In this document: piece by piece, positions 10,327-50,179 of the stretch
How the letters are laid out: each line of letters starts with the position of its first letter
Numbering within the stretch: the first letter of the stretch is position 1
Source of the DNA: an uncultured Planctomycetales bacterium
GTDB lineage: Bacteria > Omnitrophota > Gorgyraeia > Zapsychrales > Fredricksoniimonadaceae
Direction of reading: 5' to 3'
Assembly: GCA_964572155.1 (NCBI GenBank)
Contig: CAZNDZ010000001.1
Coordinates: 846,290-910,289, forward strand
DNA length: 64,000 nt
Notes under the pieces: model-generated
What the model was told of the DNA's origin: nothing
What the model saw: the letters and a program-made list of their open reading frames with translations, nothing else
The model's database searches: none
Program-made: the position numbers and the translations under genes

Positions 10327-13300
10327 ATGTTTAAGAAGCTTTTAGCCCTATTTTTATGTGTATGCATGTGTCCAATCTCTCAGGTACGTGCACAGCCTGT
10401 GGTCTTGCCGGCACTTGGGACGATGGTCAATTTAAGCCCATCCGTTAATCCTTCTGTATTAAAAGGGATTAAAGTTCACTTAGACAATCCTTTAAAATTT
10501 GATTTCATTTTAGATCCAGGCAGTAATAGAGGCGCTACATCAGATGATGCAACTAAGCTGATCAGATATTTTTTAGCGGCTTTAACCACACCAGAAAATG
10601 ATTTATGGGTAAATTTAAGTCCGTATGAAAAAGATCGCATTGTTCCAAATAGCTTTGGTCAAACGGAAATGGGACGTGATCTTTTAGCCCAAGATTATCT
10701 ACTTAAACAACTCACGGCATCGTTGGTTTATCCAGAAGGGGATGTTGGTCGAGAATTCTGGAAGAGAATATACCAAGAATCTCCGAATAAAAATATTCCA
10801 GTTAATACGTTTAATAAAGTATGGATTGTTCCAGACAAAGCAACTATCTTTGAAAATGCTCAATCAGGGACGGCTTTTGTTACTGAATCAAGTCTAAAAG
10901 TTTTAACGGAGCAAGATTACCTAGCGGGTGAAAAGAATGCGTCATCTTCTACGTCTAAAGTTGTCCGTGACATTGTCATCCCGCAATTAACAAAAGAAGT
11001 AAATGAAGGAGCAAACTTCGCGTCACTCCGTCAGGTTTATCAAAGTTTGATACTCGCAACGTGGTACAAAAATAAGATCAAAGATAGTATTCTCAATCAA
11101 GTTTATGCGGATAAGAATAAAGTGTCTGGGATTAATATTGCAAATCCAAATGAAAAGCAAAAGATTTATGAACAATATCTACAAGCTTTTAAGAAGGGCG
11201 CCTATAACTATATCAAAGAGGAAAAAGATCCCATCACCCATAAAGTAACGCCACGTAAATATTTCTCCGGTGGTTTTAATTTAGCCATGACGGGAGTTAT
11301 TAAAATTGATAATAGCATGACAGCGACGCTACGAAATCGGTTGATGCAAATTGCGCGATTAATAACGGTCGGTGTGGTATTAACAGTTAGTCCAGTATCA
11401 ACCACATTAGCTCAAACGTTAAAGTTTCCTACACAAGCCAGTGAAGAAATAAAGTTTAAAGATTGGCAAGTACAACGTTTCTTCAGTCAAGCAACGTCAG
11501 GAGATGTTCAGGCTATTTCAAGGCTTACTGTCCTTAGTAAACGAGGGAATGAGGAGGCCATTGAGGCAATTAGACGATTAATTTATGTCGAAAATACACA
11601 GGTGAGTAAAACAGCGTTGGAAGCTTTTTTGGTGACACCATTAGATGGGGTGGAGCATGAGGTAAAAATTGTTCGCGATGCGATGCGTTTACAACATAAA
11701 GAGGCTAAAGATGCATTATCTCGATTGGTTAAAGCGGGAAATATTGAAGCATCGCAATATTTAATTTTTAATACAGAAATTAAGGATCCTGTTCGAGAAC
11801 AGGCATTTAAGAATTTATTATCTGTATTAACATCAAAGAATGCAAAGACTGTTGAATGGAGAGGTCTAGTTGATGCATTATTAAGATTTTATTCAAATGA
11901 ACCAAACAATGAAACATTGCGTTTAATACTTGAGAACTTAGCACATGAAGGTGATCTTTATAGCACTCTTGTAATAATCAAAAGCAAGTTGATCAGAATA
12001 GATGTAAATAAATTGGCTTTACATGTAATGGATTGGAATGGTGGTGACTCTGTCCTTCTTGATTATTATCAAACTGACCCTTCCGAGAATACGGTAAAGG
12101 CAATCATCAATTACTTATTCTCAACTAAACAAACTTTTCAGAATCTTTTAATTATTTTGAGCGATTTTAATAAAACCAAGGAAATCTTAGAATTGCCAGA
12201 ATATAAAGATAGAGTTCCTGAAAATCCTCGAGTTATTGTTTTACTTGGAGCGTTGGGTCATGAAAAATCATTTGAATTTGCCAAAGAAAATCAACCTGAC
12301 GAACTTAGTCGACTCTATTACTACCGTTTAGAGCTAACGGCAAGAAAAGGTGATGGAGAGGCATTAGATCGACTAGAAGAATTAGCTAGCGATGAAGAAG
12401 AGGCAGACAAAGATGCGTTAGCCATATTAGCGTATTTATCACAACGCAATGATGTGTCAGCAGAAGTAAAAGGGCGCATTAACAATTTTATTGATGACCA
12501 TTTTAAATTATTTGTTCCTATTTTTACTAAGGAGAATTGGCAAGATTATGCTAAAGATCCCAAACATAAGGCCAACATTCAAACACTATTTGAAGATTTA
12601 GAAACCAACCCAAATAGGTTGCTTGCTTTAGAATGGGCTGGTCTTTTGAAGAAAGAGCATGTAGCTCGGCATCCTTTTTCTAAAGAAATATTTGATTCAA
12701 TGCTAAGGAATTGGCCAGATATGCTGAAGATTTATTTTAAGCATAGTGATGACATTCACCCTGTTTTTTCTGTATTAACACAGAAGTGGCCACAGACGGC
12801 AATGTCAAATATTCTGCAACGTGAGCGGTCTGAACTTCAACAGGAGCTCTTGAAGCGTTTAAAAGATAATAATAATTTGGGTGCAATGGCTAATCTTTTT
12901 AAGACGGAAGAAGGAAAGTTGGCTTTTTTATTGCAGGCCTTAAAAGCAGAAAATCCGCAAGCATTGCCATTGCTTAAAAGCTTTGTGGAAGAAAAGCCTG
13001 ATAGAATAGAAACACTATACCACGTTTTTTCGACAGGTCTGGTCGGAACAAGTGTCGATCAATATTTTATACTAAATCCTCAATTAGAAAAAATATTATC
13101 AGGCGTGGACGTAAAGAATTTTAGATTCATCCGTCCTTTTGGCAATTTAGATAGAGAAGAAAGTGATCTGATCTTCATGGGTAATCGAAGCGTGCTTGAA
13201 TATGTATTAAAGGATGCCATTAATTCTAATGATATTGCTAACAAGCTTGTCGATATAGGTCCCCATGTTCCTGAGTCTTTGCTTAATTGGCTTAAGAATA

Positions 13301-14499
13301 TGGACATCACTCCGTATGCTAAAAATAGTGCCCTGCTTCGGATGTTCTTTTTAGTGGGAAATGCTCAAGCAACTAAGCTTATTCAAGACGGCGTATCCAA
13401 ACAAAATAATGATATCTTTGCGCCAGTTAATGTTTTGAATTTGACTGGGTTTGGAGATCCAATGTTTAAATCGCTTAGTTCAGACGCACAGGCATATTTG
13501 GATAAATTACGTAAAGACGGCATGGGTGATTTTAAATCGAATTTACGTAAGTCTGACACTCATCAAAGTAATCATATTTTATTAAAGTTATACCTAGCGG
13601 TTTTAGTAAATATGCAGGAACGTTTTCATCTTTTTGATTTTGAAACCTTTAAGAAAATTTCTACACAAATGATCGGAAGAATGACCCTAACCGTTGATTT
13701 GAATAATGCTAATTCGGGTTTTGAGTTTGGGTATCGTTTAATCTTAAATCTTGAAAGTATTGATGAAATGCTATTTGTTACTGGGCATGAGGTAGCACAC
13801 AATTTATTGTTTGCGATGACTAAAGATAAGATTGACGGCATCAAAGGTGATCCAAACAAGATTTTGCAGTATGGATCCATTCACGAGTATTTTGCAGATA
13901 TGGTGGGGTTTGCTTTGGTCAAAGATACCAAAGCCATAGACAAGATGATGCAACGTAATTTCTTATGTGAATTTTGTGCGGGCTTAAAGACAAAAGAGGA
14001 TTGGAAGGATCCGATGTCTAATGAAAATACAAGAGAAGTGCACTACATTCCTCGTTACAGCAGAGGGGCTTTCTTGTTAATGGCAAAGAATGCTGGCATC
14101 GAACCTGCTAAATTCTTAGCTGCTCAATTTACTGAGAATCAAAACCCAATTCTAGCTTATACCGGCACGTATGAAGATTTTTACCATTATTTCTTTTATA
14201 CATTGGCCTTAGGTCTGAAAGTTAATTATGAATATGATCCAACCCTTAATATTCCCTCTAATATTGAAAAGATGTTATCGCTGGCTAAAAAGAACGCTGA
14301 TAGCGCTCAATTAGGATTAAGTAACACAGGGGGGATTGATTTAAATTCCACGAATCTTAATCTTCAAAATGCTGGCTCTGCCATTAAATTTAATATTGAT
14401 TCTGCAATGTTAAAGCAATTACAAAATGCGGCTGGTTTTACGCCTACCATTACTAGCATGAAGCCGACGCAGGACTTATTACAATTTCTAGGAATATAA
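10327..14499 (+). CDS. giant secreted protein, family paralog 1 (1390 aa): signal peptide, conserved N-module, hydrophobic linker, HEAT-like helical repeats, HExxH zincin-like region, conserved C-tail
   Basis: Uninterrupted 4.17-kb ORF; signal peptide MFKKLLALFLCVCMCPISQVRAQ; HEVAH…SIHEYFAD at 13786-13898; collinear with 17431..21630; N-module and C-tail shared with 32917..34902 and 46994..50179. Confidence 0.8.
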   Translation: MFKKLLALFLCVCMCPISQVRAQPVVLPALGTMVNLSPSVNPSVLKGIKVHLDNPLKFDFILDPGSNRGATSDDATKLIRYFLAALTTPENDLWVNLSPYEKDRIVPNSFGQTEMGRDLLAQDYLLKQLTASLVYPEGDVGREFWKRIYQESPNKNIPVNTFNKVWIVPDKATIFENAQSGTAFVTESSLKVLTEQDYLAGEKNASSSTSKVVRDIVIPQLTKEVNEGANFASLRQVYQSLILATWYKNKIKDSILNQVYADKNKVSGINIANPNEKQKIYEQYLQAFKKGAYNYIKEEKDPITHKVTPRKYFSGGFNLAMTGVIKIDNSMTATLRNRLMQIARLITVGVVLTVSPVSTTLAQTLKFPTQASEEIKFKDWQVQRFFSQATSGDVQAISRLTVLSKRGNEEAIEAIRRLIYVENTQVSKTALEAFLVTPLDGVEHEVKIVRDAMRLQHKEAKDALSRLVKAGNIEASQYLIFNTEIKDPVREQAFKNLLSVLTSKNAKTVEWRGLVDALLRFYSNEPNNETLRLILENLAHEGDLYSTLVIIKSKLIRIDVNKLALHVMDWNGGDSVLLDYYQTDPSENTVKAIINYLFSTKQTFQNLLIILSDFNKTKEILELPEYKDRVPENPRVIVLLGALGHEKSFEFAKENQPDELSRLYYYRLELTARKGDGEALDRLEELASDEEEADKDALAILAYLSQRNDVSAEVKGRINNFIDDHFKLFVPIFTKENWQDYAKDPKHKANIQTLFEDLETNPNRLLALEWAGLLKKEHVARHPFSKEIFDSMLRNWPDMLKIYFKHSDDIHPVFSVLTQKWPQTAMSNILQRERSELQQELLKRLKDNNNLGAMANLFKTEEGKLAFLLQALKAENPQALPLLKSFVEEKPDRIETLYHVFSTGLVGTSVDQYFILNPQLEKILSGVDVKNFRFIRPFGNLDREESDLIFMGNRSVLEYVLKDAINSNDIANKLVDIGPHVPESLLNWLKNMDITPYAKNSALLRMFFLVGNAQATKLIQDGVSKQNNDIFAPVNVLNLTGFGDPMFKSLSSDAQAYLDKLRKDGMGDFKSNLRKSDTHQSNHILLKLYLAVLVNMQERFHLFDFETFKKISTQMIGRMTLTVDLNNANSGFEFGYRLILNLESIDEMLFVTGHEVAHNLLFAMTKDKIDGIKGDPNKILQYGSIHEYFADMVGFALVKDTKAIDKMMQRNFLCEFCAGLKTKEDWKDPMSNENTREVHYIPRYSRGAFLLMAKNAGIEPAKFLAAQFTENQNPILAYTGTYEDFYHYFFYTLALGLKVNYEYDPTLNIPSNIEKMLSLAKKNADSAQLGLSNTGGIDLNSTNLNLQNAGSAIKFNIDSAMLKQLQNAAGFTPTITSMKPTQDLLQFLGI

Positions 14500-17379: not shown

Positions 17380-17430
17380 GAATCATTTTATAAATTTGCT
17401 GATATATAGATAATATGTTATCTTTTGTCC

Positions 17431-20400
17431 ATGTTTATTAAGATTATTGCTATAGCTTTAAGTGTTTCATTACTCCCATTTACTCCTGTAAAGGCAGTTG
17501 AAATTGTGTTGCCAAAGCCGGGAGCCATGTTGGCTTTGACGCCTTCTTTTAGCCCAGCTGTATTAAAGGGTATCAAAGTACATGTGAACGATCCTTTAAG
17601 ATTGGAGTTTATAGTTGCCCAAGGAAACGATGATAATCTTGCCCAAGAAGAATCTTCAAAACTTGTAAAATATTTTTTAGCTTCTCTTGCCACACCAGAA
17701 AAAGATATGTGGGTTAATTTAAGCCCATATGAAAAAGATCGTATTGTGCCAAATAGTTTTGGTCAAACCGAAATGGGACGTGATCTTTTAGCCCAAGATT
17801 ATATTCTCAAACAAATAACGGCGTCGTTGGTTTATCCTGAGAATGAAATAGGTAAAGAATTCTGGCGTCGTGTTTATCAAGAAGCTTCAAGAAAATCAGT
17901 CGACATTTCCATACCAATAAATACATTCAATAAAGTTTGGATCATGCCAGATAAAGCAGTAATTCAAGAAAATGTAAAGACAGGAACGGCCTATATTAAG
18001 GAAGCAACCTTAAAAGTGATGTTGGAGGTAGATTATTTATCCACTAAGAAACATGTTGCGGCATCAACTGATTCAGCAACTGAGATCGTAAGGCAGATGG
18101 TGATTCCTCAATTGACTAAGGAAGTCAATGAAGGCGCCCATTTTGCAGGCCTTCGTCAAATGTATCATGCGTTTGTATTGGCGGCATGGTATAAGAGAAA
18201 AATACAAAACAGTGTTTTATCTGGTGTTTATGTCGATCAGAATAAGACCCAAGGCGTAACTATTTCTAATCCTTTTGCCAAACAAGAAATTTATGAGCAA
18301 TATTTGCAGGCTTTCAAGAAGGGGGTTTTCAATTATATTAAAGAAGAAAGCGATCCTGTCACGCATCAATTGATACCAAAGAAATATTTTTCAGGCGGGT
18401 TAACTCTAAATATTTCACAGCGTTTGGAAATTAATAAGGCCATGACTGCTGCTGAAGCTGTAGGCATTATTAAACAAGGTTTAAAGTTGTTAACCATTTC
18501 AGTTGCCCTGACGGGTGCTTTTACGAAGCCTGCTCTTGCTCAAGTAGAGGTAGAGGATCGGCCAGTTTTTGCAAGCAGCAAAGATGAACGTGATTATGAG
18601 TTAGTGATGCGTTTGCAAGAACGTGGATTAAATGGAGAGCTGGCTGCCATTAAACGATTAGAGGTGTTATATAGGGATAATAATATTAGTTTTGCCTTAA
18701 AAGCTTTGGGCAAGATTGCATTCTCAGGCGATGCTCAGAATTCGAAGTCAGCACTAGAGCTTTTTCTAAAATCATCTTTAAGCTCATTGAAAGATTTTGA
18801 AACCCTTCGATCTGCTATCCAATTAGCTCACCCTGAATCAAAAGATGCGTTAATTAAGTTTGTGGAAAGTGGTAATTTAGATGCGTCATTTTATTTGCTG
18901 CGGACCAGTCTTACAGGTGATGTTAAAACAAAAGCTATGCAAAATATTTTAGCTTTTTTAAAGCGACCAGATCGTTTTACTTCTGAAACGCAATGGACAA
19001 CTCTAAGAATAGTTTTATTGGAAGAATTTGGACGAGATAAATCAAATGCACTGATAAAAGAAATTTTACAAGAATTGGCATATCTAGGCACAGCTTCTGT
19101 TTCGTCTCAAGTTATTGAGAGTGGTTTGGTAGAGTTAGATTCTAAAAGGTTGGTTGATAGTGCGAAACGTATGGGGTCCGGGGATATTTCGCTAATGAAA
19201 TATTACCAACATTTTCCAAGTAAAGAATTGTTAAGGAGCATCATTCGGTTTTTATTTGAAGCAGATAGGCAAACATTGAATCTTAGGGGCATATTAGCTG
19301 ATTATAACATCACAAAAGAAATTTTAGAATCGCCTGAATTTAAGGATCGAGAGCCTCCTGAAGGAAATGGCTTTCATAGAGATTCTATATTGATTTTAGC
19401 GGCAGCGGGTCATAGAAAATCTCATGAGTTGGCAGAACAGCATTACTCGGCAGGACTCGTAAAATACATTTATGATCGGTTATATTTAACTGCTTTAAAA
19501 GGAGAATTAGATTCCGTTAGTAAATTAGAAGAGATGGCCCAAGATGATGACAATGCTGCCATTGAGATAATCTATAACATATCACGCAATAAGAGTGCTT
19601 CTGACTTGATTAAACAAAGATTTAAAAGCTATATTGAGGACAACGTTGACCTTTTTAAAGATTTATTTGATAAAGGAACTTGGCAAGAATTTGGCAAAGA
19701 TCCCAAACATAAAGCGATTGTTGATGGGTTATATGAAGATGTGAAAACTGATCCCAAGGTGCTTGTCATTTTATATTGGCTTGGACTTTTAACAAAAGAG
19801 CATATCGCGTACCATCCTTTCTCTCAAGATGTTATTGATGCATTGGGTTCAAGATTAATAGATGGATTAGAATTATATTTTTCTTACGATGAGAACCCAA
19901 ACGAGCTTTTTAGGATTCTAGCTAAAAAATGGGGTGGGTATGTTGTAAGTAATTTAATGCAACCCTTTAGAAATGTCGATAAATTGGAATTAAAAAAGGT
20001 ATTTTTAAAGAGTTTGTCGCGTATGAATATTCTAGAGGCTATGGGTTATTTAAAGGATGATAAAGAGAAGCTTCAGTTGATCGTATATGCTTTGCAAGAA
20101 AACATTCCTGAAGCTTGGGGCATTCTTAAAGAATATGTTCAACATAATCATAATAGGGCGGAGTATTTATATGGGATGTATGTTTCAGGTTTTATATCTT
20201 TTGGAGATGAAGAGAATAAATTTGTAAGGGGCAATATTCAAATCAAAGATATATTGGCAAATGTGGATATGTCGACATTCAAAACAAAGGATTTCTTTCA
20301 AGGATTAGATCCAGAAATATCGCAGTTTATTCGTATTGGAAATCTAAGCATTCTTGATGTGGCATTAAAGCTGGCAATCACAAGACCTAGGGTGGCTGAG

Positions 20401-21630
20401 GATTTACAGCAAATGTCAGATGATTTTCCTAAAAATTTAAGAGATTATATCAAGGATATGAAAGATATTTCTCCGTACAAAAAGAGTGAAAGTTTAATGC
20501 GTATGTTTGTTCTGCTTGGGAACAAACCGGCTATTAGTGAGCTCTTAAAAGGTTTTCGAGTTGAAGAACCTTCGCTAATTAATACTGTTTATTTGGAATC
20601 ATATAATGATCCACGTATTCAAGCGTTCAAGAATTTATCAAGGACAACTTTGGCTGAGGTAAGAGCTCAAAATATCAGTGCCTTTAAAGAGGGCATTAGA
20701 AATATGAGTCCAAAGGAAGGTAATGAGTATATGCTGAAGCTGTATTTAAGTGCGCTTTATGATATTCAGGATCAATTCAACTTATTGGATTTTGAAATAT
20801 TTAAAGAAATTGCGGTGAAAATGATTGCTAGGATCTCTTTGTCGGTAACGTTGAATAATGCGAATTCTGGTTTTGAGTTTGGTTTTAACTTGTTGTTGCG
20901 TTTAAATAGCATTGATGAGCTGCTGTTTGTTTTGCATCACGAGCTTGCCCATAATGTTTTAGATGCAAAATTGTTAGATAGGAAAATCGATCGTTTTAAG
21001 CTTGATCAAAAGAAAAAAGTTCAAGTTGGTTCAATTCATGAGTATTTTTCTGACATTGTTGCATATGCGGCTAGTCAGGACGACAAGAAAGTGGCAAGGT
21101 TATTTGATGATAATTTCTTGTGTGATTATTGTAGGGCTGTGAACTTTTCAGATTTTAAACTTTTGCAAGAAGAAGTTCATGTTATCCCACGTACTTCATT
21201 AGCTTTATTTCGTTTCAAGGCAAAAGCAAAAGGTATTGATACGGCAAAATTCTTTGCTGAGTTATTTAAAAACCATCGTGAGAAAATTCTAAACTACTCG
21301 GGTGATTACACTAATTTCAATGATTATTTTATATACACTCTGGCTCTTCAATTAGGGGTTACATACACATATGATCCAAGCATAAATTTATCCGAGAACT
21401 TGGACAGGTTGTTAGATTTGCCAGTTCCCAATAAAGCCATGGCGGCTATTGATGGGGGGATTGACTTTAATACAGAGAATCTGAACTTAGTAAATCCTTC
21501 AGCAGGCGCTCAAATACATTTCAATGTGTCTGCTGATTTGCTTAAACAGTACAATAATGTTGCAGGTTTTATACCTACCATTAAGGCTGTGCAGCCACTA
21601 GTAGATCTTAATTCTTTTCTGAACTTATAA
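17431..21630 (+). CDS. giant secreted protein, family paralog 2 (about 1400 aa), full-length collinear with paralog 1
   Basis: 4.2-kb ORF; signal peptide MFIKIIAIALSVSLLPFTPVKA; N-module; HHELAHN…SIHEYFSD at 20938-21054; conserved tail …GGIDFNTENLNL…IPTIKAVQP…; start moved to ATG 17431 (track TTG 17425). Confidence 0.8.
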   Translation: MFIKIIAIALSVSLLPFTPVKAVEIVLPKPGAMLALTPSFSPAVLKGIKVHVNDPLRLEFIVAQGNDDNLAQEESSKLVKYFLASLATPEKDMWVNLSPYEKDRIVPNSFGQTEMGRDLLAQDYILKQITASLVYPENEIGKEFWRRVYQEASRKSVDISIPINTFNKVWIMPDKAVIQENVKTGTAYIKEATLKVMLEVDYLSTKKHVAASTDSATEIVRQMVIPQLTKEVNEGAHFAGLRQMYHAFVLAAWYKRKIQNSVLSGVYVDQNKTQGVTISNPFAKQEIYEQYLQAFKKGVFNYIKEESDPVTHQLIPKKYFSGGLTLNISQRLEINKAMTAAEAVGIIKQGLKLLTISVALTGAFTKPALAQVEVEDRPVFASSKDERDYELVMRLQERGLNGELAAIKRLEVLYRDNNISFALKALGKIAFSGDAQNSKSALELFLKSSLSSLKDFETLRSAIQLAHPESKDALIKFVESGNLDASFYLLRTSLTGDVKTKAMQNILAFLKRPDRFTSETQWTTLRIVLLEEFGRDKSNALIKEILQELAYLGTASVSSQVIESGLVELDSKRLVDSAKRMGSGDISLMKYYQHFPSKELLRSIIRFLFEADRQTLNLRGILADYNITKEILESPEFKDREPPEGNGFHRDSILILAAAGHRKSHELAEQHYSAGLVKYIYDRLYLTALKGELDSVSKLEEMAQDDDNAAIEIIYNISRNKSASDLIKQRFKSYIEDNVDLFKDLFDKGTWQEFGKDPKHKAIVDGLYEDVKTDPKVLVILYWLGLLTKEHIAYHPFSQDVIDALGSRLIDGLELYFSYDENPNELFRILAKKWGGYVVSNLMQPFRNVDKLELKKVFLKSLSRMNILEAMGYLKDDKEKLQLIVYALQENIPEAWGILKEYVQHNHNRAEYLYGMYVSGFISFGDEENKFVRGNIQIKDILANVDMSTFKTKDFFQGLDPEISQFIRIGNLSILDVALKLAITRPRVAEDLQQMSDDFPKNLRDYIKDMKDISPYKKSESLMRMFVLLGNKPAISELLKGFRVEEPSLINTVYLESYNDPRIQAFKNLSRTTLAEVRAQNISAFKEGIRNMSPKEGNEYMLKLYLSALYDIQDQFNLLDFEIFKEIAVKMIARISLSVTLNNANSGFEFGFNLLLRLNSIDELLFVLHHELAHNVLDAKLLDRKIDRFKLDQKKKVQVGSIHEYFSDIVAYAASQDDKKVARLFDDNFLCDYCRAVNFSDFKLLQEEVHVIPRTSLALFRFKAKAKGIDTAKFFAELFKNHREKILNYSGDYTNFNDYFIYTLALQLGVTYTYDPSINLSENLDRLLDLPVPNKAMAAIDGGIDFNTENLNLVNPSAGAQIHFNVSADLLKQYNNVAGFIPTIKAVQPLVDLNSFLNL

Positions 21631-22577: not shown

Positions 22578-23039
22578 ATGATGGCAACCTCAGCAGAAGA
22601 TATTAAAAAATTACGCGAAGAAACATCTTGCGGGATCATTGATTGTAAAAAAGCATTAGACCAAGCTCAAGGTGATTTTGCCAAAGCAAAAGATCTCTTG
22701 CGCCAACGTGGTTTAGAAATGGCTGCGAAGAAGAGTGATCGCGTTGCCAAAGAAGGCCGCGTGGAAAGCTATATTCATAACGGTAATAAGATTGGTGTTG
22801 TCGTCGAAGTTAATTGCGAAACCGATTTCGTTGCTCGCAGCGAAGATTTCATCAAGTTTTGCAAAGACGTTGCCATGCACATTGCCGCGATGAATCCTGA
22901 AAATGTTGAAGGTTTACTCGCACAACCATATGTCCGTGATGCAAGCAAAACCATCAAGGATTTATTAAATGAATTAGTGTCCAAGATTGGTGAAAACACC
23001 ATGATCGGACGTTTCACACGTTATAAAGTTGGCGAATAA
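22578..23039 (+). CDS. tsf: elongation factor Ts (unusually short, 153 aa)
   Basis: N-terminal UBA-like …[37 protein letters not shown]… and core …[11 protein letters not shown]…; rpsB-tsf-pyrH-frr synteny. Confidence 0.8.
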
Positions 23040-32820: not shown

Positions 32821-32916
32821 AGTTAAGTTTTAAGGTTGCATTTTGCGACCATAAAGCATTGTTCATAAGCGGTTAATAAATTGGTAAACCTATACTCTAT
32901 AGGGTACACTATATTT

Positions 32917-34902
32917 ATGACGCCACATCGATGGTTTGCCAACATAATGCTTGTGGTATTTTTTCAGGCGATGGTTTTGCCTGTGCCTTTGACACATGCC
33001 CAAGAAGTCGTATTACCTGCCCCTGGTGTGATGGTTGATTTAAGCCCTAGTTTCGTTCCGCCACATTTAGCAGGAATTACCGTTTACCCTAATAGTCCGC
33101 TTAAATTTGATTTCATCATTCAACGTGGTGACACGCCATTATCTGACGAAGAAAAACAAGCAGAATACAAAAAGCTTATCAAATATTTCTTAGCATCGTT
33201 GGCTGTCCCTGATGATAATCAATGGGTTAACTTATCCCCATATGAAAAAGACCGCATTGTTGGTCCTGATTTTGCCAATACAAAAATGGGTAGAGATTTG
33301 CTGGCCCAAGACTACATTCTAAAACAAATAACTTCATCGCTCATTTACCCTGAGAAAGATTTAGGTAAAGGTTTTTGGGATAAGGTATATGCGCAAGCCT
33401 ATAAACAATTTGGTAACACCAACATTCCCGTTAACACTTTTAATAAAGTATGGATTGTCCCAGACAGTGCCGTCATTTTTGAAAAAGGCAATAGTGCCTA
33501 CGTTCTTAAGAATCATTTAAAAGTGATGCTTGAACAAGACTATGTCGCCACCGAACAAAATGCGGTGAGCGCGAATGGCAATAAAGTTGTGACCTTAAAT
33601 GCGTCGACGTCCAACGTCATGCGCGATGTCATCATTCCCGTCTTAGAAAAAGAAGTTAATGAAGGTAAAAATTTTGCGAATTTACGACAAGTTTATAGCG
33701 GGATGTTGCTTGCCGCATGGTATAAGCGGGTACTTAAAGAATCATTCTTAGCAAAAGTGTACGCGGATAAATCAAAATTAAAAGGTATCGATCAAGACCC
33801 TAAAGCAAATCAGGAAATTTATGCACGATATCTTCAAGCGACCAAAAAAGGTGTGTATAACTTTATTAAAGAAGATGTAGATAAGTATACCCAACAAATT
33901 ATTCCAAGAAAGTATTTCTCCGGTGGGGCTGAAGGGTATAAGGATTTTGGAAAGGTGCAGCGGATTAATGACCGAGCTCAAGCCTCTGCTAATCCTTCCT
34001 ATAGACAAATACTAGAGGGCGTTAATGTTGATAATGTAGACATATTATTTGATGATATGTCTCTGCCTGTAGATAATCGATCTGCAAATGTTGTGGATGT
34101 TTTTTCAGGTAATGTCAGTACTTCTGTTAGAGGTGTAGATTTCCCTTTAAAAGTGGTTCCTGAATCTACTGAGCACATAGACATTTTTAGTGGTGCTGTT
34201 GAAAAATCGGTTGGACATGTACAAATTCCTTCGAATGTAATCCAAGACAAAGAACAACAGGATGCACGTTTAGCTAGGGAAATAAGAATGGATCCTTATT
34301 TTTCTGATTTGGATGATATGGGTAAGAATATGGGAATAAATATGCGACGTTTGTACAAATACGACGGGACAACAAATAAAAACACTGTTGATGAAATGAT
34401 AGAAATCTTAGAACGTATTGTAGACGAAGTAGAATTTAAAGGGAGTAAAGATCAAATTGAAATATACCAAGAAGTTGATGAGTTAAGTTCTAAATTTGGA
34501 GAAGGTCGACAACAGAAGTATTTAGGTCTTAAGTTTAAGAAGTTTAGTGTGCATTTTAATACTGAAGCAAATTTAAAAGCATTAGGCGAAAAGACTAAGC
34601 TAATGTTACAAAAGATTATTATGGAGAGAGCAAAATCAAGGCTTGATTATGCGATGATTGGTATACAGGGTGCTACAACTCAAGCAGCTAATAACGTTGA
34701 TGCAGACCAAGCCGCTAATCCCGTGGGTGGTATTGACCTTAATGCTTCTAAATTGAACATGCAAATTAAGCGGGATGGGAATGGGGTTGTTTTGCCTTTG
34801 GCTCAGCAGAATTGGGAAGGTATTGTTATTAATGGTTTGACGCCTGTGATCCTTGAAATTAAACCTGCGGTTGGTTTATCCATTCTAGATATACAAAATT
34901 AA
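32917..34902 (+). CDS. secreted protein, family paralog 3 (about 660 aa): signal peptide, conserved N-module, short divergent middle, conserved C-tail (subtype …IKRDGNGVVLPL…)
   Basis: Signal peptide MTPHRWFANIMLVVFFQAMVLPVPLTHAQ; N-module …WVNLSPYEKDRIV…MGRDLLAQDYILKQITSSLIYPE…NTFNKVWIVPD…RKYFSGG; tail …GGIDLNASKLNMQ…PVILEIKP…; start moved to ATG 32917. Confidence 0.75.
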   Translation: MTPHRWFANIMLVVFFQAMVLPVPLTHAQEVVLPAPGVMVDLSPSFVPPHLAGITVYPNSPLKFDFIIQRGDTPLSDEEKQAEYKKLIKYFLASLAVPDDNQWVNLSPYEKDRIVGPDFANTKMGRDLLAQDYILKQITSSLIYPEKDLGKGFWDKVYAQAYKQFGNTNIPVNTFNKVWIVPDSAVIFEKGNSAYVLKNHLKVMLEQDYVATEQNAVSANGNKVVTLNASTSNVMRDVIIPVLEKEVNEGKNFANLRQVYSGMLLAAWYKRVLKESFLAKVYADKSKLKGIDQDPKANQEIYARYLQATKKGVYNFIKEDVDKYTQQIIPRKYFSGGAEGYKDFGKVQRINDRAQASANPSYRQILEGVNVDNVDILFDDMSLPVDNRSANVVDVFSGNVSTSVRGVDFPLKVVPESTEHIDIFSGAVEKSVGHVQIPSNVIQDKEQQDARLAREIRMDPYFSDLDDMGKNMGINMRRLYKYDGTTNKNTVDEMIEILERIVDEVEFKGSKDQIEIYQEVDELSSKFGEGRQQKYLGLKFKKFSVHFNTEANLKALGEKTKLMLQKIIMERAKSRLDYAMIGIQGATTQAANNVDADQAANPVGGIDLNASKLNMQIKRDGNGVVLPLAQQNWEGIVINGLTPVILEIKPAVGLSILDIQN

Positions 34903-41129: not shown

Positions 41130-42117
41130 AGCCATCATTTTTGTGTTTGGTGCTATTATCGGTAGTTTCCTTAATGTGTGCATTGTGCGCATGCCCCAAG
41201 AAAAATCCATTGCTTTCCCGTCGTCACATTGTGTTTCTTGTCAGCACCCAATTGCATGGTTTGACAATATCCCATTAATCAGCTGGATGGCCTTAGGCGG
41301 TAAATGCCGTCATTGCAAAGCCAAGATATCTTTTCGATATTGGTTTGTTGAATTGTTAACAGCCTGTGTCTTTGTTTGGTTTTACAAAAGTTTTGGCCTG
41401 CAGTTGGTTTTGTTGCCATATTTATTTATGGCCGGTTGTTTTATTGTTGCGACCATGGTTGATTTAAAGCATCGCATCATCCCCGATGAAATCAGCATCG
41501 GCGGCATGTTTGCGGGCATAGCCTTTAGCGCTTTGATCCCTACATTGCATATGAAGGAATTTAATAATGTTGCCTTGTCCGGTTTTATTGCAGGTTTGAT
41601 TGTTTTGATATGTTTATTTCTCATCTTAATTTATCCAATATTCTGCAAACATTTGATTGAAGAAGAAGGATCGAATGATGACAGGGAAGTTAAGATCTTA
41701 GTGTTGTGTTCTTTGCTTGTCATTGCAGGGATTAATTTTTTTGCAGCGCAAATACCAGCGGTAATATTGCCCTATGCTTTAAGTTTGAGCTCAGCCTTGT
41801 CAGGTTTTATCATAGGCGGCGGCGTGATTTATGTGATGGGTTTGATGGGGGATATTATTTTCAAGAAAGAGAGCATGGGTGGTGGAGATGTCAAGCTCAT
41901 GGCCTTGATTGGTGCATTTTTGGGATGGAAATTAGCGGTATTAACATTCTTTATCGCGCCATTCTTCGGTGCCATCGTCGGTATTATTGAGAAAGTTCGC
42001 ACCAAAGACAGCACCATTGCCTACGGTCCATTTTTAGTTGCAGGGGCTTTGGTCAGTTTATTTTATGGCGACGCCATTATTAGTTGGATACTGCGAGGAG
42101 GTATTTATGGTTATTAG
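41122..42117 (+). CDS. prepilin (type IV leader) peptidase, A24 family
   Basis: N-terminal zinc-binding CxxC…CxxC, multi-TM, …GGGDVKLMALIGAFLGW… catalytic Asp motif. Confidence 0.8.
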   Translation: MVEAIIFVFGAIIGSFLNVCIVRMPQEKSIAFPSSHCVSCQHPIAWFDNIPLISWMALGGKCRHCKAKISFRYWFVELLTACVFVWFYKSFGLQLVLLPYLFMAGCFIVATMVDLKHRIIPDEISIGGMFAGIAFSALIPTLHMKEFNNVALSGFIAGLIVLICLFLILIYPIFCKHLIEEEGSNDDREVKILVLCSLLVIAGINFFAAQIPAVILPYALSLSSALSGFIIGGGVIYVMGLMGDIIFKKESMGGGDVKLMALIGAFLGWKLAVLTFFIAPFFGAIVGIIEKVRTKDSTIAYGPFLVAGALVSLFYGDAIISWILRGGIYGY

Positions 42118-46071: not shown

Positions 46072-46928
46072 ACGCATACATAGTCAAATACCTGTCGTTT
46101 TTAGAAATTGAGAAGAATTACTCTCTACACACCATTTTAAATTACCGCCTTGATCTTGAAGAATTCGCCAAATTCGCCGGCGATGTTGCGGTCAGCTCAA
46201 TCGAATATACAACCCTGCGTCGATTTTTAGCGCACATGCGCGAATTAAAATTAAAGCCGCGCAGTGTGGCCCGTAAATTATCAAGCCTGCGATCATTCTT
46301 TAAATACCTGCAACGCGAAAAAGTCATATCCAAGAATCCAGCGGCCTTGCTTGTGACCCCAAAGCTAGATAAGCCCTTGCCACATTTTTTAAGTGAAGCC
46401 GAAGCGGTGCAATTAATAGAAGCCCCAAAGAGTGATTTAAAAGCAGACCCTAGGGATAAGGCCATTTTTGAAGTGCTTTACTCGACGGGCATGCGTGTTT
46501 CAGAATTGGTGGGGTTGGATGTGGACGACGTAGATTTTATTAGCAACATCGCCCGTGTCATGGGTAAGGGCAAGAAAGAACGCATTGTGCCTATTGGCGA
46601 TACTGCTTTAGAAACGTTAAAAAAATACATCGATACAAGGCCGCATCAATCAAAAGCCATGTTCCTTAATAAGAGCGGCACTCGATTAACCGATCGCAGT
46701 GTTCGCAACATCATCAATAAGTTCATCCTGAAAGAAGCCATGCGTCAACATGTCACCCCACACATGTTTCGCCACTCCTTTGCCACGCATCTTTTAAACA
46801 GGGGGGCTGATTTACGTTCTGTCCAAGAACTTTTAGGCCATGTCAACCTTTCCACCACTCAAATCTACACTCATTTGACCACAGATAAGCTAAAAAGCGT
46901 CTACGATAAAGCCCATCCAAGGGCCTAG
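46068..46928 (+). CDS. tyrosine recombinase XerC/XerD family
   Basis: …RHSFATHLLNRGADLRSVQELLGHVNLSTTQIYTH… catalytic R-H-R-Y box. Confidence 0.88.
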   Translation: MNAYIVKYLSFLEIEKNYSLHTILNYRLDLEEFAKFAGDVAVSSIEYTTLRRFLAHMRELKLKPRSVARKLSSLRSFFKYLQREKVISKNPAALLVTPKLDKPLPHFLSEAEAVQLIEAPKSDLKADPRDKAIFEVLYSTGMRVSELVGLDVDDVDFISNIARVMGKGKKERIVPIGDTALETLKKYIDTRPHQSKAMFLNKSGTRLTDRSVRNIINKFILKEAMRQHVTPHMFRHSFATHLLNRGADLRSVQELLGHVNLSTTQIYTHLTTDKLKSVYDKAHPRA

Positions 46929-46948: not shown

Positions 46949-46977
46949 TTGACAGTCTATATATAATATGGCATACT
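46949..46977 (+). promoter_or_regulatory. candidate sigma70 promoter for paralog 4: TTGACA-17 nt-CATACT
   Basis: Perfect -35 at 46949-46954, 17-nt spacer, 4/6 -10 at 46972-46977, 16 nt upstream of ATG 46994. Confidence 0.35.
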
Positions 46978-46993
46978 TTACCCAGAAAACGTT

Positions 46994-49900
46994 ATGAAAA
47001 GCCCATTTGCCAAAATTGCCAATTTTACTGTTTTGCTTACATTTTTTGTGAGCACGCTTTCTATTTCTAAGCTTCAGGCTGGGGAAGTCGTTGTGCCCAT
47101 TATGCCAAAGCCGGGGACCATGGTTAGTTTAAGTCCAATCTATAGCCCTGCGTTTTTAAATGGGGTTGTGATCCATGAAGACAATGCGCTTCAATTTGAT
47201 TTCTTGATCCACAAGGGTGATGGCAATTTAGACCTTCCTCAAAAAAATGAAGAATACACCAAGCTCGTCAAATATTTCTTAGCATCCTTAACTATCCCTG
47301 ACAGCGACCAATGGGTTAACCTTTCACCCTACGAACATGATCGCATCATCAAAGATAATTTCGGCAAAACAGAAATGGGCCGCGATTTATTAGCCCAAGA
47401 TTATTTGCTCAAACAAATCACCTCGTCATTGATGTACCCTGAAAGCGGTTTAGGTAAAGAATTCTGGAACAAGGTTTACGAACGCGCCGCCCAAGAATTT
47501 GGTAACGTACAGGTTCCTGTTAACACCTTCAATAAAGTTTGGATTGTCCCAGATGAAGCGCTAGTCTACGAAAGCGGCAATACCGCCTACGTCGTTAAAA
47601 GCCATTTGAAAGTCATGTTGGAAGAAGATTATTTATCTTTAGAAAAACATTCTGCTGTAACCGAAGAGCCAAACAAGGTGCATGCGATCTCATCAAAAAT
47701 GATCCGAGAAATCATCTTGCCTGCCCTAGAAAAAGAAGTCAACGAAGGCAAAAACTTCGCCCAATTACGCCAAATCTTCTCAGGCATGGTGCTAGCCACG
47801 TGGTATAAAAAAGCGTTAAAAGAATCCATGCTCGGCAAAATCTACGCCGACAAAGCTAAAGTTATCGGTGTCAATCAAGACCCAACCAACAACGAAAAAA
47901 TCTACCAACAATACCTAGTCGCCTTCAAAAAAGGCGTCTACAACTACATCAAAGAAGACGTCGACAAATACACCAAACAAATCATCCCAAGAAAATATTT
48001 TTCAGGTGGGTTTGAGAAGAAGGATATCAAAGTTAAAACTACAACAGTTTCATCACAAGCCATGGCTTCAGTGGTTGATCCTCAAACAGATTTAGCAATG
48101 ATCAGATTAGATGCTCCTGATGCGGCGATGGCTGGTGATGGGAATGCTAAAATTAATGGCGGAGATTATGCTTTTCGAAAAGTTGTATTCGAAGAGCTTT
48201 CTGATTTAGGAAAAGATTTTTATGGTGTTGCAGGTGATGTGATTGATGTTGAGGCTAGGGTGGTTGAAGAGGGGGCTAAGCCCAGTATTAATGAGCCTAT
48301 TCTTGTTCAAAAACTTTTGGCATTAGAAGAGAAAGCAAATAAAAGCAAAGTCCCATTAAGCGTAAATGCTCAAAAAGCAATAGGTTTATACGGACAAATT
48401 CAAGCATTAGCTAAAACCAATTTGCCACCAAGCGATATTAAAGCGTTAAGTCCAGTTGCTAAAGAATTGAGTGCAAAGTTAGACGGAGAACCAAAGAAAA
48501 TTTTAGATCGAGTTTTGAGAATTTTAGGTCTTGATTCGGCGATGAATGCAAATCTGACACCGTCAGATCGACTTTATAATGATTTGAAGATTTCCTATAA
48601 GGGCATAGAGGTTGGGAAGACTTTACCTTTGACTGATGAGACGTTGAAACGAATTATAGAAACGGTGAAACCACTGAGCCCTACTCAAAAAGGTATGTTG
48701 GCTGTAGAGATGATGCGGGTTTACGCCGGAAATGAACAGAAAATTATTTCCGCGCTAGGTTTAGATAAAGCGATGTTGGGTGATTTTTTTAAGAAATTTA
48801 AGGATCGATTGATATATGGTGGATTGGATGACACTCCTGAATTAGATACTGGCGATAAGATTGGCGATAAGAAGGGAGCTATAAATGAAGTGGCTAAAGC
48901 ATATGGCTCTTCGTTTCCTTCGCAAGTTGAAGTAGCAAAGGTTATTAGATACGATCCAAAGATGCCAGTTTCACCTGAGTTAAATAAAACTTTTAAGGCT
49001 TTCGAGATGGTCGGAGGTCTAGAGTTTTGGCAAAAATTTGAAGATAGGATTAATAGGAAAGAATTACCTAATCCATTAATGATCGATGGTTTGGTTGGTC
49101 GGGAAGTAGATTTATTAGTAAAAGGTGCAGATGGTAAAGAAGAGATAATTACTCGTAAGATTTTAGGATATCAACCTAAGTCACTTAAAGAAGCTGATGG
49201 GTATATAATCAATGTTCAAGAAATAGTTTCAAAGAATGGTGAGATTGTTAGAAGGTCTGGGGAAATTGGAGCAGCAACGATTTTGCAGATTGTTGATAAG
49301 GGTGGAGCTATTAAAACCTCTACTATAAACAACTCCGTAAAGATATTAGTTGCTAAAACTCTTCTTGATCCCAACAATTCCGAAGGTGTTTGGGAAAAAG
49401 ATGACCCAACGACCGGTGTCCTTCGATTAAAGCAAGGTGTGGATATTAAGAGTGTTATAAAACAATTGCCTCTAGAATCAAATAATTTAGATGCACTAAA
49501 AACTCTAATTGATGCAGTAGAACCTAAAATAATCTATGAGATAAAATTTGGGCAAGTTATTGATATATCTTCGTTAGGACCACAGCCTAAGATTGTAAAC
49601 AGAAGTGCATCCAATAATGATGAACTACGATTGAATGATAAGGTTCTATTAACTTCAAATAGGACGGTGGCGCCACCTATAGCAACGCCAGATAAACCTT
49701 TATTAGATTATTTGCCGTTATTATCAAAAGGTTGGGATTATTCCATTAAATTTGTTGTAGATGGTCATGTTGAGAATGGACAAAAATATATGGGGCGAGA
49801 AGGGGATGTTTTTATTTTTGAGCCTATGCCTGGTATTCAAATGAGATATGCTTCTTCAAGAATTAAAGAAATTAAAGATGTTGATGGAAATCTTGTGTGG

Positions 49901-50179
49901 CCAGTAAGAGGTTTGGTTGATTCTAATAAGGCAATGATCTCTAAAGGAAAAGATTTTAACAAGGGTGGTATTGATTTGAATGGGGCTAATTTGAATTTTG
50001 AGATTAAGAGGGATGGGAAGGGTGTTCCTTTGCCTTTGCCTCAGCAGGATATGGAGTTGTTGAATAAGATTCAGGGGTTTGTGCCGACTATCATAGAGAT
50101 TAAGCCGGTTACTACTTTGCCTATGTTCAGCCAATTGCACGAAAATTCTACGTCTCAAAATCTCGCCAGTGCGTCTTAA
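46994..50179 (+). CDS. giant secreted protein, family paralog 4 (1061 aa): signal peptide, conserved N-module, long divergent middle, conserved C-tail
   Basis: Signal peptide MKSPFAKIANFTVLLTFFVSTLSISKLQAGE; N-module …WVNLSPYEHDRII…MGRDLLAQDYLLKQITSSLMYPE…NTFNKVWIVPD…RKYFSGG; tail …GGIDLNGANLNFEIKRDGKGVPLPLPQQ…VPTIIEIKP…. Confidence 0.75.
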   Translation: MKSPFAKIANFTVLLTFFVSTLSISKLQAGEVVVPIMPKPGTMVSLSPIYSPAFLNGVVIHEDNALQFDFLIHKGDGNLDLPQKNEEYTKLVKYFLASLTIPDSDQWVNLSPYEHDRIIKDNFGKTEMGRDLLAQDYLLKQITSSLMYPESGLGKEFWNKVYERAAQEFGNVQVPVNTFNKVWIVPDEALVYESGNTAYVVKSHLKVMLEEDYLSLEKHSAVTEEPNKVHAISSKMIREIILPALEKEVNEGKNFAQLRQIFSGMVLATWYKKALKESMLGKIYADKAKVIGVNQDPTNNEKIYQQYLVAFKKGVYNYIKEDVDKYTKQIIPRKYFSGGFEKKDIKVKTTTVSSQAMASVVDPQTDLAMIRLDAPDAAMAGDGNAKINGGDYAFRKVVFEELSDLGKDFYGVAGDVIDVEARVVEEGAKPSINEPILVQKLLALEEKANKSKVPLSVNAQKAIGLYGQIQALAKTNLPPSDIKALSPVAKELSAKLDGEPKKILDRVLRILGLDSAMNANLTPSDRLYNDLKISYKGIEVGKTLPLTDETLKRIIETVKPLSPTQKGMLAVEMMRVYAGNEQKIISALGLDKAMLGDFFKKFKDRLIYGGLDDTPELDTGDKIGDKKGAINEVAKAYGSSFPSQVEVAKVIRYDPKMPVSPELNKTFKAFEMVGGLEFWQKFEDRINRKELPNPLMIDGLVGREVDLLVKGADGKEEIITRKILGYQPKSLKEADGYIINVQEIVSKNGEIVRRSGEIGAATILQIVDKGGAIKTSTINNSVKILVAKTLLDPNNSEGVWEKDDPTTGVLRLKQGVDIKSVIKQLPLESNNLDALKTLIDAVEPKIIYEIKFGQVIDISSLGPQPKIVNRSASNNDELRLNDKVLLTSNRTVAPPIATPDKPLLDYLPLLSKGWDYSIKFVVDGHVENGQKYMGREGDVFIFEPMPGIQMRYASSRIKEIKDVDGNLVWPVRGLVDSNKAMISKGKDFNKGGIDLNGANLNFEIKRDGKGVPLPLPQQDMELLNKIQGFVPTIIEIKPVTTLPMFSQLHENSTSQNLASAS

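Follow-up and report, generated by a model that had tools for sequence, protein, structure and literature searches.

In this study, which was based on a computational analysis of a 64-kb window (the whole stretch of DNA that was analysed), we found that four of its genes, P1 to P4, represent an undescribed protein family of very large size from the Omnitrophota, tiny bacteria that depend on a host. Its members carry a variable middle (the cargo), of which there are hundreds of different enzyme- or toxin-like kinds, between a conserved N-terminal module (the head) and a conserved C-terminal tail. We lean towards the view that these proteins are Sec-exported modular cargo carriers for interaction with a host or prey, in which the head and the tail would be shared handling modules, and the family is probably the exported arsenal of the cell. 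All four open reading frames (ORFs) were confirmed on the plus strand (10327-14499, 17431-21630, 32917-34902 and 46994-50179). Their products of 1390, 1399, 661 and 1061 aa, respectively, are large rather than giant, as the preliminary description had called them. The mechanical ORFs of P2 and P3 open at an upstream TTG (17425 and 32881), and the ATG starts at 17431 and 32917 agree with the family alignment. P3 has an exact match among the database proteins (P0165, 661 aa, 100% identity). Three parts are common to P1-P4: a signal-peptide-like start, an N-module of ~290 aa and a tail of ~58 aa. The N-module was present in all four as had been proposed, but its length after the signal peptide is ~290-310 aa and not 330 aa. 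Its pairwise identity is 50-60% (tblastn, E 1e-103 to 1e-137), the tails match each other at E 1e-4 to 1e-15, and the similarity of both ends, when checked by alignment, is far beyond chance. In the multiple alignment, the N-module has ~130 invariant columns and closes with RKYFSGG, while the tail opens with GGID(L/F)N and follows the motif GGID.N..L.......G.....G..P.I....P. The earlier division into two subtypes was also confirmed: P1 and P2 (subtype A) are collinear from end to end with 44% identity, and P3 and P4 (subtype B) have the IKRDGxG tail variant in common. No further copies were found in the 64-kb window, 21% of which consists of family genes in a genome of 1.3 Mb. The features are as follows (nucleotide positions in the window):

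10327..14499 (+): P1 gene, subtype A, 1390 aa, flanked by queA and tgt
10279..10326 (+): P1 promoter-like block abutting the ATG, without a Shine-Dalgarno sequence
10327..10392 (+): P1 predicted signal peptide, aa 1-22, ...VRA|Q (sequence reading and heuristic)
10393..11274 (+): P1 N-module, aa 23-316, ends KYFSGG (alignment; AF2 model, pLDDT 74.8)
11275..14328 (+): P1 variable cargo, a helical region and a C-terminal metalloprotease-like domain
11278..11289 (+): P1 boundary motif NLAM, aa 318-321 (motif scan)
13786..14043 (+): P1 thermolysin-like active-site motifs HEVAH, E1187xxxD1191 and H1239 (PDB profile matches all M4, E 0.024-2)
14299..14310 (+): P1 boundary motif DSAQ, aa 1325-1328
14329..14496 (+): P1 C-terminal tail, type A (GGIDLN...GFTPTI...)
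17431..21630 (+): P2 gene, subtype A, 1399 aa, flanked by rnhB and rpsB
17387..17430 (+): P2 promoter-like block abutting the ATG, without a Shine-Dalgarno sequence
17431..17496 (+): P2 predicted signal peptide, aa 1-22, ...VKA|V (heuristic)
17497..18399 (+): P2 N-module, to KYFSGG at aa 323
18400..21453 (+): P2 variable cargo, collinear with P1
18433..18444 (+): P2 first boundary motif NKAM, aa 335-338
20938..20952 (+): P2 HELAH zinc-binding motif of the thermolysin-like domain
21430..21441 (+): P2 second boundary motif NKAM, aa 1334-1337
21454..21627 (+): P2 C-terminal tail, type A
32917..34902 (+): P3 gene, subtype B, 661 aa, flanked by pfkA and a YhcG/DUF1016 nuclease gene
32880..32916 (+): P3 promoter-like block abutting the ATG, without a Shine-Dalgarno sequence
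32917..33000 (+): P3 predicted signal peptide, aa 1-28, ...THA|Q (heuristic)
33001..33927 (+): P3 N-module, to KYFSGG at aa 337
33928..34725 (+): P3 variable cargo
33970..33981 (+): P3 boundary motif DRAQ, aa 352-355
34645..34656 (+): P3 boundary motif DYAM, aa 577-580
34726..34899 (+): P3 C-terminal tail, type B (GGIDLN..LNMQIKRDGNGVVLPL...)
46994..50179 (+): P4 gene, subtype B, 1061 aa, flanked by a XerC/D-type recombinase gene and a MazE/PIN pair
46949..46993 (+): P4 promoter-like block, TTGACA-17-CATACT preceded by TG, 16 nt 5' of the ATG
46994..47080 (+): P4 predicted signal peptide, aa 1-29, ...LQA|G (heuristic)
47081..48010 (+): P4 N-module, to KYFSGG at aa 339
48011..49963 (+): P4 variable cargo
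49964..50176 (+): P4 C-terminal tail, type B, with a short extension

Searches with the N-module returned 8,384 clusters (50% identity) at E<=1e-3 and 6,794 at E<=1e-30, and across the family clusters the module is always N-terminal. At least 589 family loci were present in species genomes, and the best 80 of these all lie in Omnitrophota MAGs with no more than nine copies per MAG. Every named match to the family is likewise from Omnitrophota, with several copies per genome. As far as these named hits show, the family appears to be confined to this phylum, which agrees with the lineage specificity that had been suggested. A phage origin was rejected, since the head was found on only 3 of 2.9 million IMG/VR contigs. 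The literature on Omnitrophota and searches for the motif strings of the family yielded no description of it. In an unbiased sample of N-module proteins, both ends were present in 125 of 146 (86%) and the tail sits at a median of 8 aa from the C-terminus, which makes conserved ends with variable cargo a rule for the whole family. Headless tails in the 80 loci were either 5'-truncated ORFs or placed directly downstream of a head-only ORF; head-only proteins of ~350 aa also occur. Moreover, the distances between heads correlate with those between tails (Mantel r=0.80, permutation maximum 0.054), and a head with a 6-residue loop goes with a type A tail in 112 of 112 cases.

Neither the head nor the tail matched Pfam, NCBIfam, PHROGs, PADLOC, PDB sequences or the fold libraries, and thus the earlier impression that both modules are new to the known families held. 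For the tails of P1-P4, Pfam and NCBIfam gave no match at E<=1, and the tail profile matched nothing in the PDB. The isolated P1 head was modelled by AF2 as an alpha/beta structure (pLDDT 74.8) with a closing hairpin of low confidence. That the tail is a repeat of part of the head was rejected (hhalign probability 1.2%). The signal-peptide start that had been read in all four proteins was supported by a heuristic that required a basic n-region, a hydrophobic 10-mer and a small-x-small site together; P1-P4 all show these hallmarks, as do 222 of 240 members of the family. Neither membrane-spanning nor sortase-type features mark the tail: over the last 80 aa, the hydropathy maximum of 19-residue windows is 1.04 at the median, and only 5 of 216 members reach 1.6. 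Double-glycine (C39) cleavage at KYFSGG and GGID would be speculation; the -4 and -7 positions misfit the leader consensus.

The middles between the head and the tail are hypervariable across the family, and approximately 85% of the cargos have no recognisable domain. The recognisable ones, always placed between head and tail, include Fic, deaminase, PLD, kinase, phosphatase, methyltransferase, receiver and metalloprotease domains, and because of these cargo types, exported effectors or enzymes seem to be indicated more than surface adhesins. Further domains in relatives are HTH, DnaJ, HATPase, ABC1 kinase, TPR and LysM-like. The HExxH motif occurs 41 times in the middles compared to 4.1 +/- 2.1 in shuffled sequences, a 10-fold enrichment. 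P1 and P2 have the motifs HExxH...ExxxD...H in invariant form, and these can be aligned with Mcp02 and pseudolysin. When their protease region was searched against PDB profiles, the best matches were all M4 peptidases, yet with E-values of only 0.024-2, while against Pfam there was no M4 match and only a weak match to M48 (E=0.14). The cargo of both proteins appears to carry a thermolysin-like zinc metalloprotease domain. It shares HExxH, (N/H)ExxxD and a downstream His with the thermolysin-like secreted metalloproteases of M4/clan MA(E), but the likeness lies under the significance level of the Pfam M4 models (best PDB E 0.024) and the domain forms part of a helical cargo of 1,000 aa. In P3, aa ~443-590 were modelled by AF2 with moderate confidence as a small alpha/beta domain and a long helix. 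The P4 cargo had no homologs among ~400 family proteins or in the PDB. The analysis also revealed a new motif at the module boundaries, [DN]xA[MQ], which was observed 787 times compared to 101 +/- 10 in shuffled sequences (7.8-fold) and was present in 97% of the members, where it lies 17 aa behind KYFSGG and 19 aa ahead of GGID (medians). Its codons vary between occurrences, and the P4 cargo contains five copies (starts at nt 48089, 48119, 48533, 48764 and 49925). We infer that it is a candidate processing or recognition site that would free the cargo.

The observation that each copy stands alone among housekeeping genes was upheld for P1-P4 and for the neighbourhoods of 80 loci. The genes downstream are tgt (P1), rpsB (P2), the YhcG nuclease gene (P3) and the MazE/PIN pair (P4), and the commonest neighbour gene was found in only 6 of the 80 loci. 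A dedicated neighbour or immunity gene was rejected, as no immunity gene lies 3' of P1-P4 and no downstream gene recurs across the 80 loci. The secretion or surface system that had been proposed was not borne out either, because no translocon, sortase-like enzyme or conserved partner gene adjoins the family genes in these loci, and a new secretion system for the family may only be inferred. Each gene would be an autonomous transcription unit, scattered among housekeeping operons, with a promoter-like block near the ATG and no Shine-Dalgarno sequence. A sigma-54 promoter, considered for the TGGCA boxes upstream of many members, was rejected because the GG-to-GC spacing misfits. The GC3 of the family genes is low (0.24-0.30 vs. 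0.42), which may reflect low expression.

The layout of the family recalls several known systems. Like the T9SS cargo of Bacteroidota, its members combine an N-terminal Sec signal and a conserved, extreme C-terminal module with very diverse cargo, and both occur as many paralogs per genome with genes scattered away from the machinery. However, the tail is ~58 aa long compared to 70-100 aa for the T9SS CTD, the tails of P1-P4 did not match the CTD models Por_Secre_tail, TIGR04183 and TIGR04131, T9SS cargo has no common N-terminal domain comparable to the head, and the organism belongs to Omnitrophota and not Bacteroidota. No T9SS genes were found among the annotated genes of the 64-kb window. 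The proteins also differ from TpsA of the T5bSS, as there was no Pfam TPS (haemagglutination activity) match, the head is modelled as alpha/beta and not as a beta-helix, and housekeeping genes rather than a TpsB transporter gene lie next to the family genes. Polymorphic toxin systems (CdiA, Rhs, MafB and others) were reportedly described by Zhang, Aravind et al. in 2012. Both they and this family join a conserved trafficking part to swappable toxin or enzyme domains and have a short junction motif (VENN in CdiA, [DN]xA[MQ] here), and the cargo of the relatives overlaps in Fic, MafB19-like deaminase, PLD and metallopeptidase motifs. In contrast, their variable part is C-terminal, whereas here it lies between two conserved ends (the tail is last in 125 of 146), no immunity gene follows P1-P4, export would use a Sec signal and the trafficking domains are unrelated. 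The LapA/SiiE-type RTX adhesins are similarly bipartite, with a conserved N-terminal module and a ~60-aa C-terminal signal around a variable body, the former for retention and the latter for type I secretion. They lack a Sec signal and have RTX repeats, while this family has Sec hallmarks and no RTX (HemolysinCabind) match, and their body is made of adhesin repeats rather than enzymes. For the sortase and exosortase signals (LPXTG, PEP-CTERM, GlyGly-CTERM), no NCBIfam match was found, in addition to the low C-terminal hydropathy.

According to the explanation that we favour, the order of parts would be a Sec-type signal peptide, the ~290-aa head, a [DN]xA[MQ] linker, the cargo, a second [DN]xA[MQ] linker and the ~58-aa GGID(L/F)N tail. 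LPS genes were found in the window and point to a diderm organism. Because of the sequence hallmarks of a signal peptide, the unfolded chain would be brought via Sec to the periplasm of this LPS-bearing cell. One conserved machinery would then read the head and the tail so that the proteins are sorted, passed through the outer membrane, retained at the surface or delivered; this handling role is suggested by their strong conservation compared to the free middle, their obligatory pairing and the co-variation of the subtypes. The cargo would act outside the cell or within the host or prey, in P1 and P2 as a thermolysin-like zinc protease and in the relatives as Fic, deaminase, PLD, kinase, phosphatase, methyltransferase and similar domains, and could be freed when [DN]xA[MQ] is cut or recognised at the module boundaries. 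Receiver, HTH, DnaJ and HATPase cargo is typically cytoplasmic and could argue for a role inside the envelope of the producer and not for delivery. Omnitrophota have been described as ultra-small and host-dependent or predatory bacteria with Tad, T4P and T2SS-like systems (PMC10066038; 10.1101/2023.11.21.568195). A more specific proposal, which we put forward tentatively as conceivable though not expected, is that the head and tail are halves of a bipartite export or delivery signal for an Omnitrophota-specific envelope machinery with at least two co-evolving variants (A and B), and that cleavage at [DN]xA[MQ] frees the effectors into the host or prey. If this were true, it would amount to a new pathway of protein secretion or delivery, and an entire phylum would have its main virulence arsenal in this family.

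It is unlikely that the family is instead a variable surface coat or adhesin, whose head anchors in the envelope and whose tail inserts in the outer membrane or makes lattice contacts, with the middle displayed for host attachment or antigenic variation as in S-layer or variable surface proteins. The signal peptide, the conserved ends, the many paralogs per genome and the TPR or LysM-like cargo of some relatives would suit such a role, as would the supposed attachment of Omnitrophota to hosts (PMC10066038), but catalytic and regulatory domains dominate the recognisable cargo, no Ig-like, cadherin, lectin or other adhesin repeats were found among 200 members, and the features of the tail described above do not fit.

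We consider it distinctly improbable that the head and tail are halves of one structural unit, folded in cis or joined head-to-tail between subunits, from which the cargo protrudes as an inserted loop of a polymer or scaffold. Flagellin is built in this way, with a core formed by its conserved ends and a variable middle that is left exposed. The obligatory pairing and strong co-variation of the ends are consistent with such a unit, although shared descent or a shared partner explains the co-variation equally. The low confidence of the last hairpin in the model of the isolated head, as if a partner were missing, might point the same way, and the cargo can dwindle to almost nothing, as in P0056 (438 aa). 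However, a profile-profile comparison of the tail with the head showed no relation, and the full-length AlphaFold model of P3 with 41 paired homologs left the tail undocked, at a quality (pLDDT 51, tail ~35) that is too low to count as a test. Even less probable are enzymes that are exported via Sec and then remain periplasmic or attached to the inner membrane without any delivery, the head being a docking domain for, e.g., peptidoglycan or a membrane complex. The Sec hallmarks and the lack of an outer-membrane secretion component linked to the genes agree with this, but Fic, nucleotide deaminase, receiver, HTH, ABC1 kinase and SAM-methyltransferase domains need cytoplasmic substrates or cofactors, and spending 21% of the window on the family in such a small genome suggests an outward-facing role. 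Finally, chance similarity or an artefact of assembly or annotation has virtually no probability and is already refuted by E-values as low as 1e-137 inside the window, thousands of independent homologs and identical proteins that recur in independent assemblies.

Omnitrophota are distributed globally and are thought to be predators or parasites of other microbes. Work on them has so far centred on giant genes and pili. If the family consists of Sec-exported cargo carriers, two easily recognised modules would tag thousands of candidate effectors or exoenzymes and offer a searchable handle on how these bacteria act on their hosts. The family would define a predicted secretome for the phylum. It would also supply candidates for a sorting signal and for a processing motif, both directly testable, and structural studies would gain two orphan domains, of which one lacks a known fold. 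Moreover, it may be a source of new enzyme and toxin domains.

All four open reading frames (ORFs) named in the preliminary description are present in the window, and both alignment and tblastn confirmed that their ends are homologous.

The four paralogs in the window, with the promoter-like blocks ahead of them and their neighbours
10327-14499, + strand: P1, ORF of 1390 aa; promoter-like block 10279-10326; neighbours queA and tgt
17431-21630, + strand: P2, ORF of 1399 aa counted from ATG (mechanical ORF start, TTG at 17425); promoter-like block 17387-17430; neighbours rnhB and rpsB-tsf-pyrH-frr
32917-34902, + strand: P3, ORF of 661 aa counted from ATG (mechanical ORF start, TTG at 32881); promoter-like block 32880-32916; neighbours pfkA and a YhcG-type nuclease gene
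46994-50179, + strand: P4, ORF of 1061 aa; promoter-like block 46949-46993; neighbours a XerC/D-type recombinase gene and a MazE/PIN pair

When the four proteins were aligned, a densely conserved N-terminal block that ends in RKYFSGG (the head) and a common C-terminal block, GGID(L/F)N...G(F/L)xPxI....P (the tail), were found on either side of a variable middle. In tblastn of each module against the window, the heads were 50-60% identical (E 1e-103 to 1e-137), the tails matched at E 1e-4 to 1e-15 and no fifth copy was detected. The end-to-end collinearity of P1 and P2 and the IKRDGxG tail variant common to P3 and P4 were recovered as described. The shared N-terminal module is real and measures about 290-310 aa, compared with the approximately 330 aa that had been proposed, and the proteins, which had been called giant, are better termed large. 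Together, the four genes occupy 21% of the window bases. P3 is identical to a database protein on a 1,344,502-bp NCBI contig that carries at least one further paralog, and the window therefore derives from an Omnitrophota genome of small size (~1.3 Mb).

Word-indexed searching with the P1 head as query gave 1,391 proteins, and those that were named were all annotated as "hypothetical protein" of Candidatus Omnitrophica or Omnitrophota. An exhaustive search of 1.84 billion cluster representatives with the head profile yielded 8,384 clusters with a cutoff of E<=1e-3 and 6,794 with one of E<=1e-30; the head was N-terminal in every match, in proteins of 435-2,816 aa. At least 589 encoding loci were found in one-genome-per-species contigs, and the best 80 of these came without exception from Omnitrophota metagenome-assembled genomes (MAGs), some of which are ENA bins with a placeholder "Planctomycetales" label, with at most nine loci from one MAG. 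In IMG/VR, the head occurred on only three of 2.9 million contigs; these (L084, L085 and L086), classed as viral, carry one member each, with 52-53% identity to the P1 head. No description of the family was found in the literature, including PMC10066038, 10.1101/2023.11.21.568195 and 10.64898/2026.06.07.730766, or by text searches for its motifs. The profile searches of the modules that had been suggested assigned no family: P1-P4 had no significant domain match in Pfam, NCBIfam, PHROGs or PADLOC, and neither the head nor the tail profile matched PDB sequences. The AlphaFold model of full-length P3 was poor (pLDDT 51, about 35 in the tail). The tail as a repeat of a head segment was ruled out by hhalign. 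Neither module matches a known family or fold, and the family is real, very large and undescribed, with two orphan modules. The lineage-specific secretion or surface system that had been proposed is partly supported: its Omnitrophota-only named matches and its novel modules stand, and the dedicated system itself stays putative.

Across the family, the architecture is constant and the pairing of head and tail is obligatory. Of the 146 best representatives of the unbiased head search, 125 (86%) carry the tail at their C-terminus, where a median of eight residues follow it, and the remaining tail-less proteins mostly resemble truncated gene calls. In the 80 loci, every tail that lacked a head was in an ORF that a contig end interrupts or that immediately follows a head-only ORF. 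The latter arrangement was seen in several MAGs (loci L030, 2520-7235; L048, 5905-9701; L073, 5908-8852; L024; L080); the two ORFs share a frame with one intervening stop in L030 and lie in different frames in L048 and L073. Such pairs could be pseudogenes, sequencing errors or cases of recoding. The two modules also co-vary: pairwise head and tail distances were strongly correlated (Mantel r=0.80; maximum over 300 permutations 0.054), all 112 heads with a six-residue loop had a type A tail, and heads with a four-residue loop mostly had a type B (KRDG) tail. P1 and P2 represent subtype A, and P3 and P4 subtype B.

The middles are bounded by a short motif, [DN]xA[MQ], which occurs 787 times in the middles of 247 members, compared with 101 +/- 10 after shuffling. 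Of the members, 97% carry it (median three per protein); it clusters at a median of 17 residues past KYFSGG and 19 ahead of GGID, and is followed by small residues. Its density is 4.5 per 1,000 aa in the family versus 0.9 in the housekeeping proteins of the window, and its codons vary, so selection acts at the protein level. Each of P1-P4 has one copy right after the head and one right before the tail, and the type A tail consensus includes it as DPAML. P4 has two further internal copies, which may separate sub-domains. We infer that the motif is a candidate processing or recognition site.

Between these boundaries, the cargo regions of different members are essentially unrelated. The P4 middle has no homolog among approximately 400 family proteins or in the PDB, and that of P1 matches only P2 and three weak hits. 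A Pfam-recognisable domain was found in about 15% of members, always between head and tail. In the 120 relatives closest to P3, these were response-regulator receiver, SAM-methyltransferase, HD, LMW phosphatase, DnaJ, HATPase_c and TPR domains; in 80 unbiased members, they were methyltransferases, HATPase_c, ABC1 kinase, PLD, peptidase M48, HTH, receiver, phosphoribosyltransferase, HAD, Fic/DOC, cytidine/MafB19-like deaminase, PP2C, pentapeptide repeats and glycosyltransferase. HExxH was enriched ten-fold in the middles, where 36 of 231 proteins have 41 copies between them (shuffles 4.1 +/- 2.1). In the C-terminal cargo part of P1 and P2, HExxH, ExxxD and a downstream His are all invariant, and the best PDB matches of its profile, albeit weak (E 0.024-2), are all M4 (thermolysin-like) peptidases. 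These motifs and matches lead to a zinc-protease reading, in which P1 and P2 are probably exported zinc proteases on a long helical stalk.

At the N-termini are a basic n-region, a hydrophobic core that is short, and a small-x-small site, which lies a few residues ahead of a conserved LPxPG; by our heuristic, 222 of 240 members show all three signal-peptide hallmarks, and a lipobox is absent. The window encodes Kdo transferase, LpxK, lipid A acyltransferase and heptosyltransferases, which makes the organism an LPS-bearing diderm, in which Sec export alone would place the family proteins in the periplasm. The tail, in which no transmembrane-like segment was found, is therefore no signal of the sortase or exosortase type. 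Two LPS-related genes (53179-55182 and 55182-57269) are fusion-like, one joining a lipid A acyltransferase to an ELM1-like (PF06258) domain and the other a GT4 glycosyltransferase to a GT9 heptosyltransferase. A prepilin peptidase gene (A24; 41122-42117), amid the aromatic amino-acid genes aroE and aroK, agrees with reports of type IV pilus and T2SS-like systems in the phylum.

The most recurrent neighbour family was found in at most six of the 80 related loci, so no dedicated partner or immunity gene adjoins the family genes. All window paralogs and many relatives are preceded by a conserved promoter-like block, made up of TTGnnn or TGGCAA, then a TATATAG-rich spacer, then (C/T)ATACT, that ends 6-16 nt upstream of the ATG. 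An SD-like tetramer was found in 16% of family genes versus 56% of control genes (Fisher p=5e-8), and 43% versus 11% had a -10-like box at 4-17 nt upstream of the ATG (p=1e-6). The genes therefore have the appearance of autonomous units with little or no leader, which suggests that their mRNAs are leaderless or nearly so. The family genes are also markedly GC-poorer than the housekeeping genes around them: GC was 0.35-0.37 in the middles versus 0.44 in housekeeping genes (GC3 0.24-0.30 versus 0.42), which could reflect expression level, mutation bias or foreign origin.

P4 is the only paralog flanked by a XerC/D-type tyrosine recombinase gene (46068-46928) and a MazE-antitoxin/PIN-toxin pair (50246-50889) with a canonical AAGGAGG ribosome-binding site, and its surroundings may be a small mobile or variable island. 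Behind P3, after a 277-nt spacer, a YhcG/DUF1016 PD-(D/E)XK nuclease gene (35180-36214) breaks the run of glycolysis genes from pfkA to fba. A regulatory-type PTS set (EIIA-2, HPr and Enzyme I; 24701-28525) surrounds a CofD/YvcK-like gene in this reduced genome, and no sugar permease was seen. The tsf ORF (22578-23039; 153 aa) matches the EF-Ts profile over no more than its first 77 positions out of 204, and either encodes an unusually short EF-Ts or has a mis-set boundary. The strand bias of the window is extreme, as all 31 ORFs of at least 300 aa lie on the + strand. Cumulative GC skew rises monotonically across 1-64000, P1-P4 coincide with skew peaks, and 83% of neighbour ORFs in related loci are co-oriented with the family gene.

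The simplest account that fits all observations is that the family consists of modular cargo carriers exported by Sec, and we consider it somewhat probable. Interaction with an invariant cellular machinery, which would serve sorting, outer-membrane passage, retention or delivery, would keep head and tail constant, and the middle could be replaced freely. A displayed surface coat or adhesin family is unlikely, as the cargo types speak against it, and a split structural domain that polymerises seems more doubtful still. The same cargo speaks against periplasm-resident enzymes, a reading about as improbable. Among known systems, T9SS cargo, in which diverse proteins carry a Sec signal and a conserved C-terminal domain, and polymorphic toxins, in which a demarcation motif and swappable enzymatic domains accompany a conserved trafficking part, are the closest in working, and LapA-type adhesins share the bipartite N-plus-C logic. 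However, the family belongs to none of these, because CTD, TPS and RTX models did not match its proteins, the variable part is internal rather than C-terminal as in polymorphic toxins, no immunity gene follows and the tail has no membrane anchor.

As cargo carriers, the proteins would be exported, cross the outer membrane, be processed at the boundary motif and act on hosts. This account fits the literature on Omnitrophota, where they are described as ultra-small cells that depend on hosts or are predatory (PMC10066038; 10.1101/2023.11.21.568195; 10.64898/2026.06.07.730766). The cargo repertoire resembles known effector and toxin arsenals, and it is this enzyme- and toxin-like cargo that gives the family its high biological interest.
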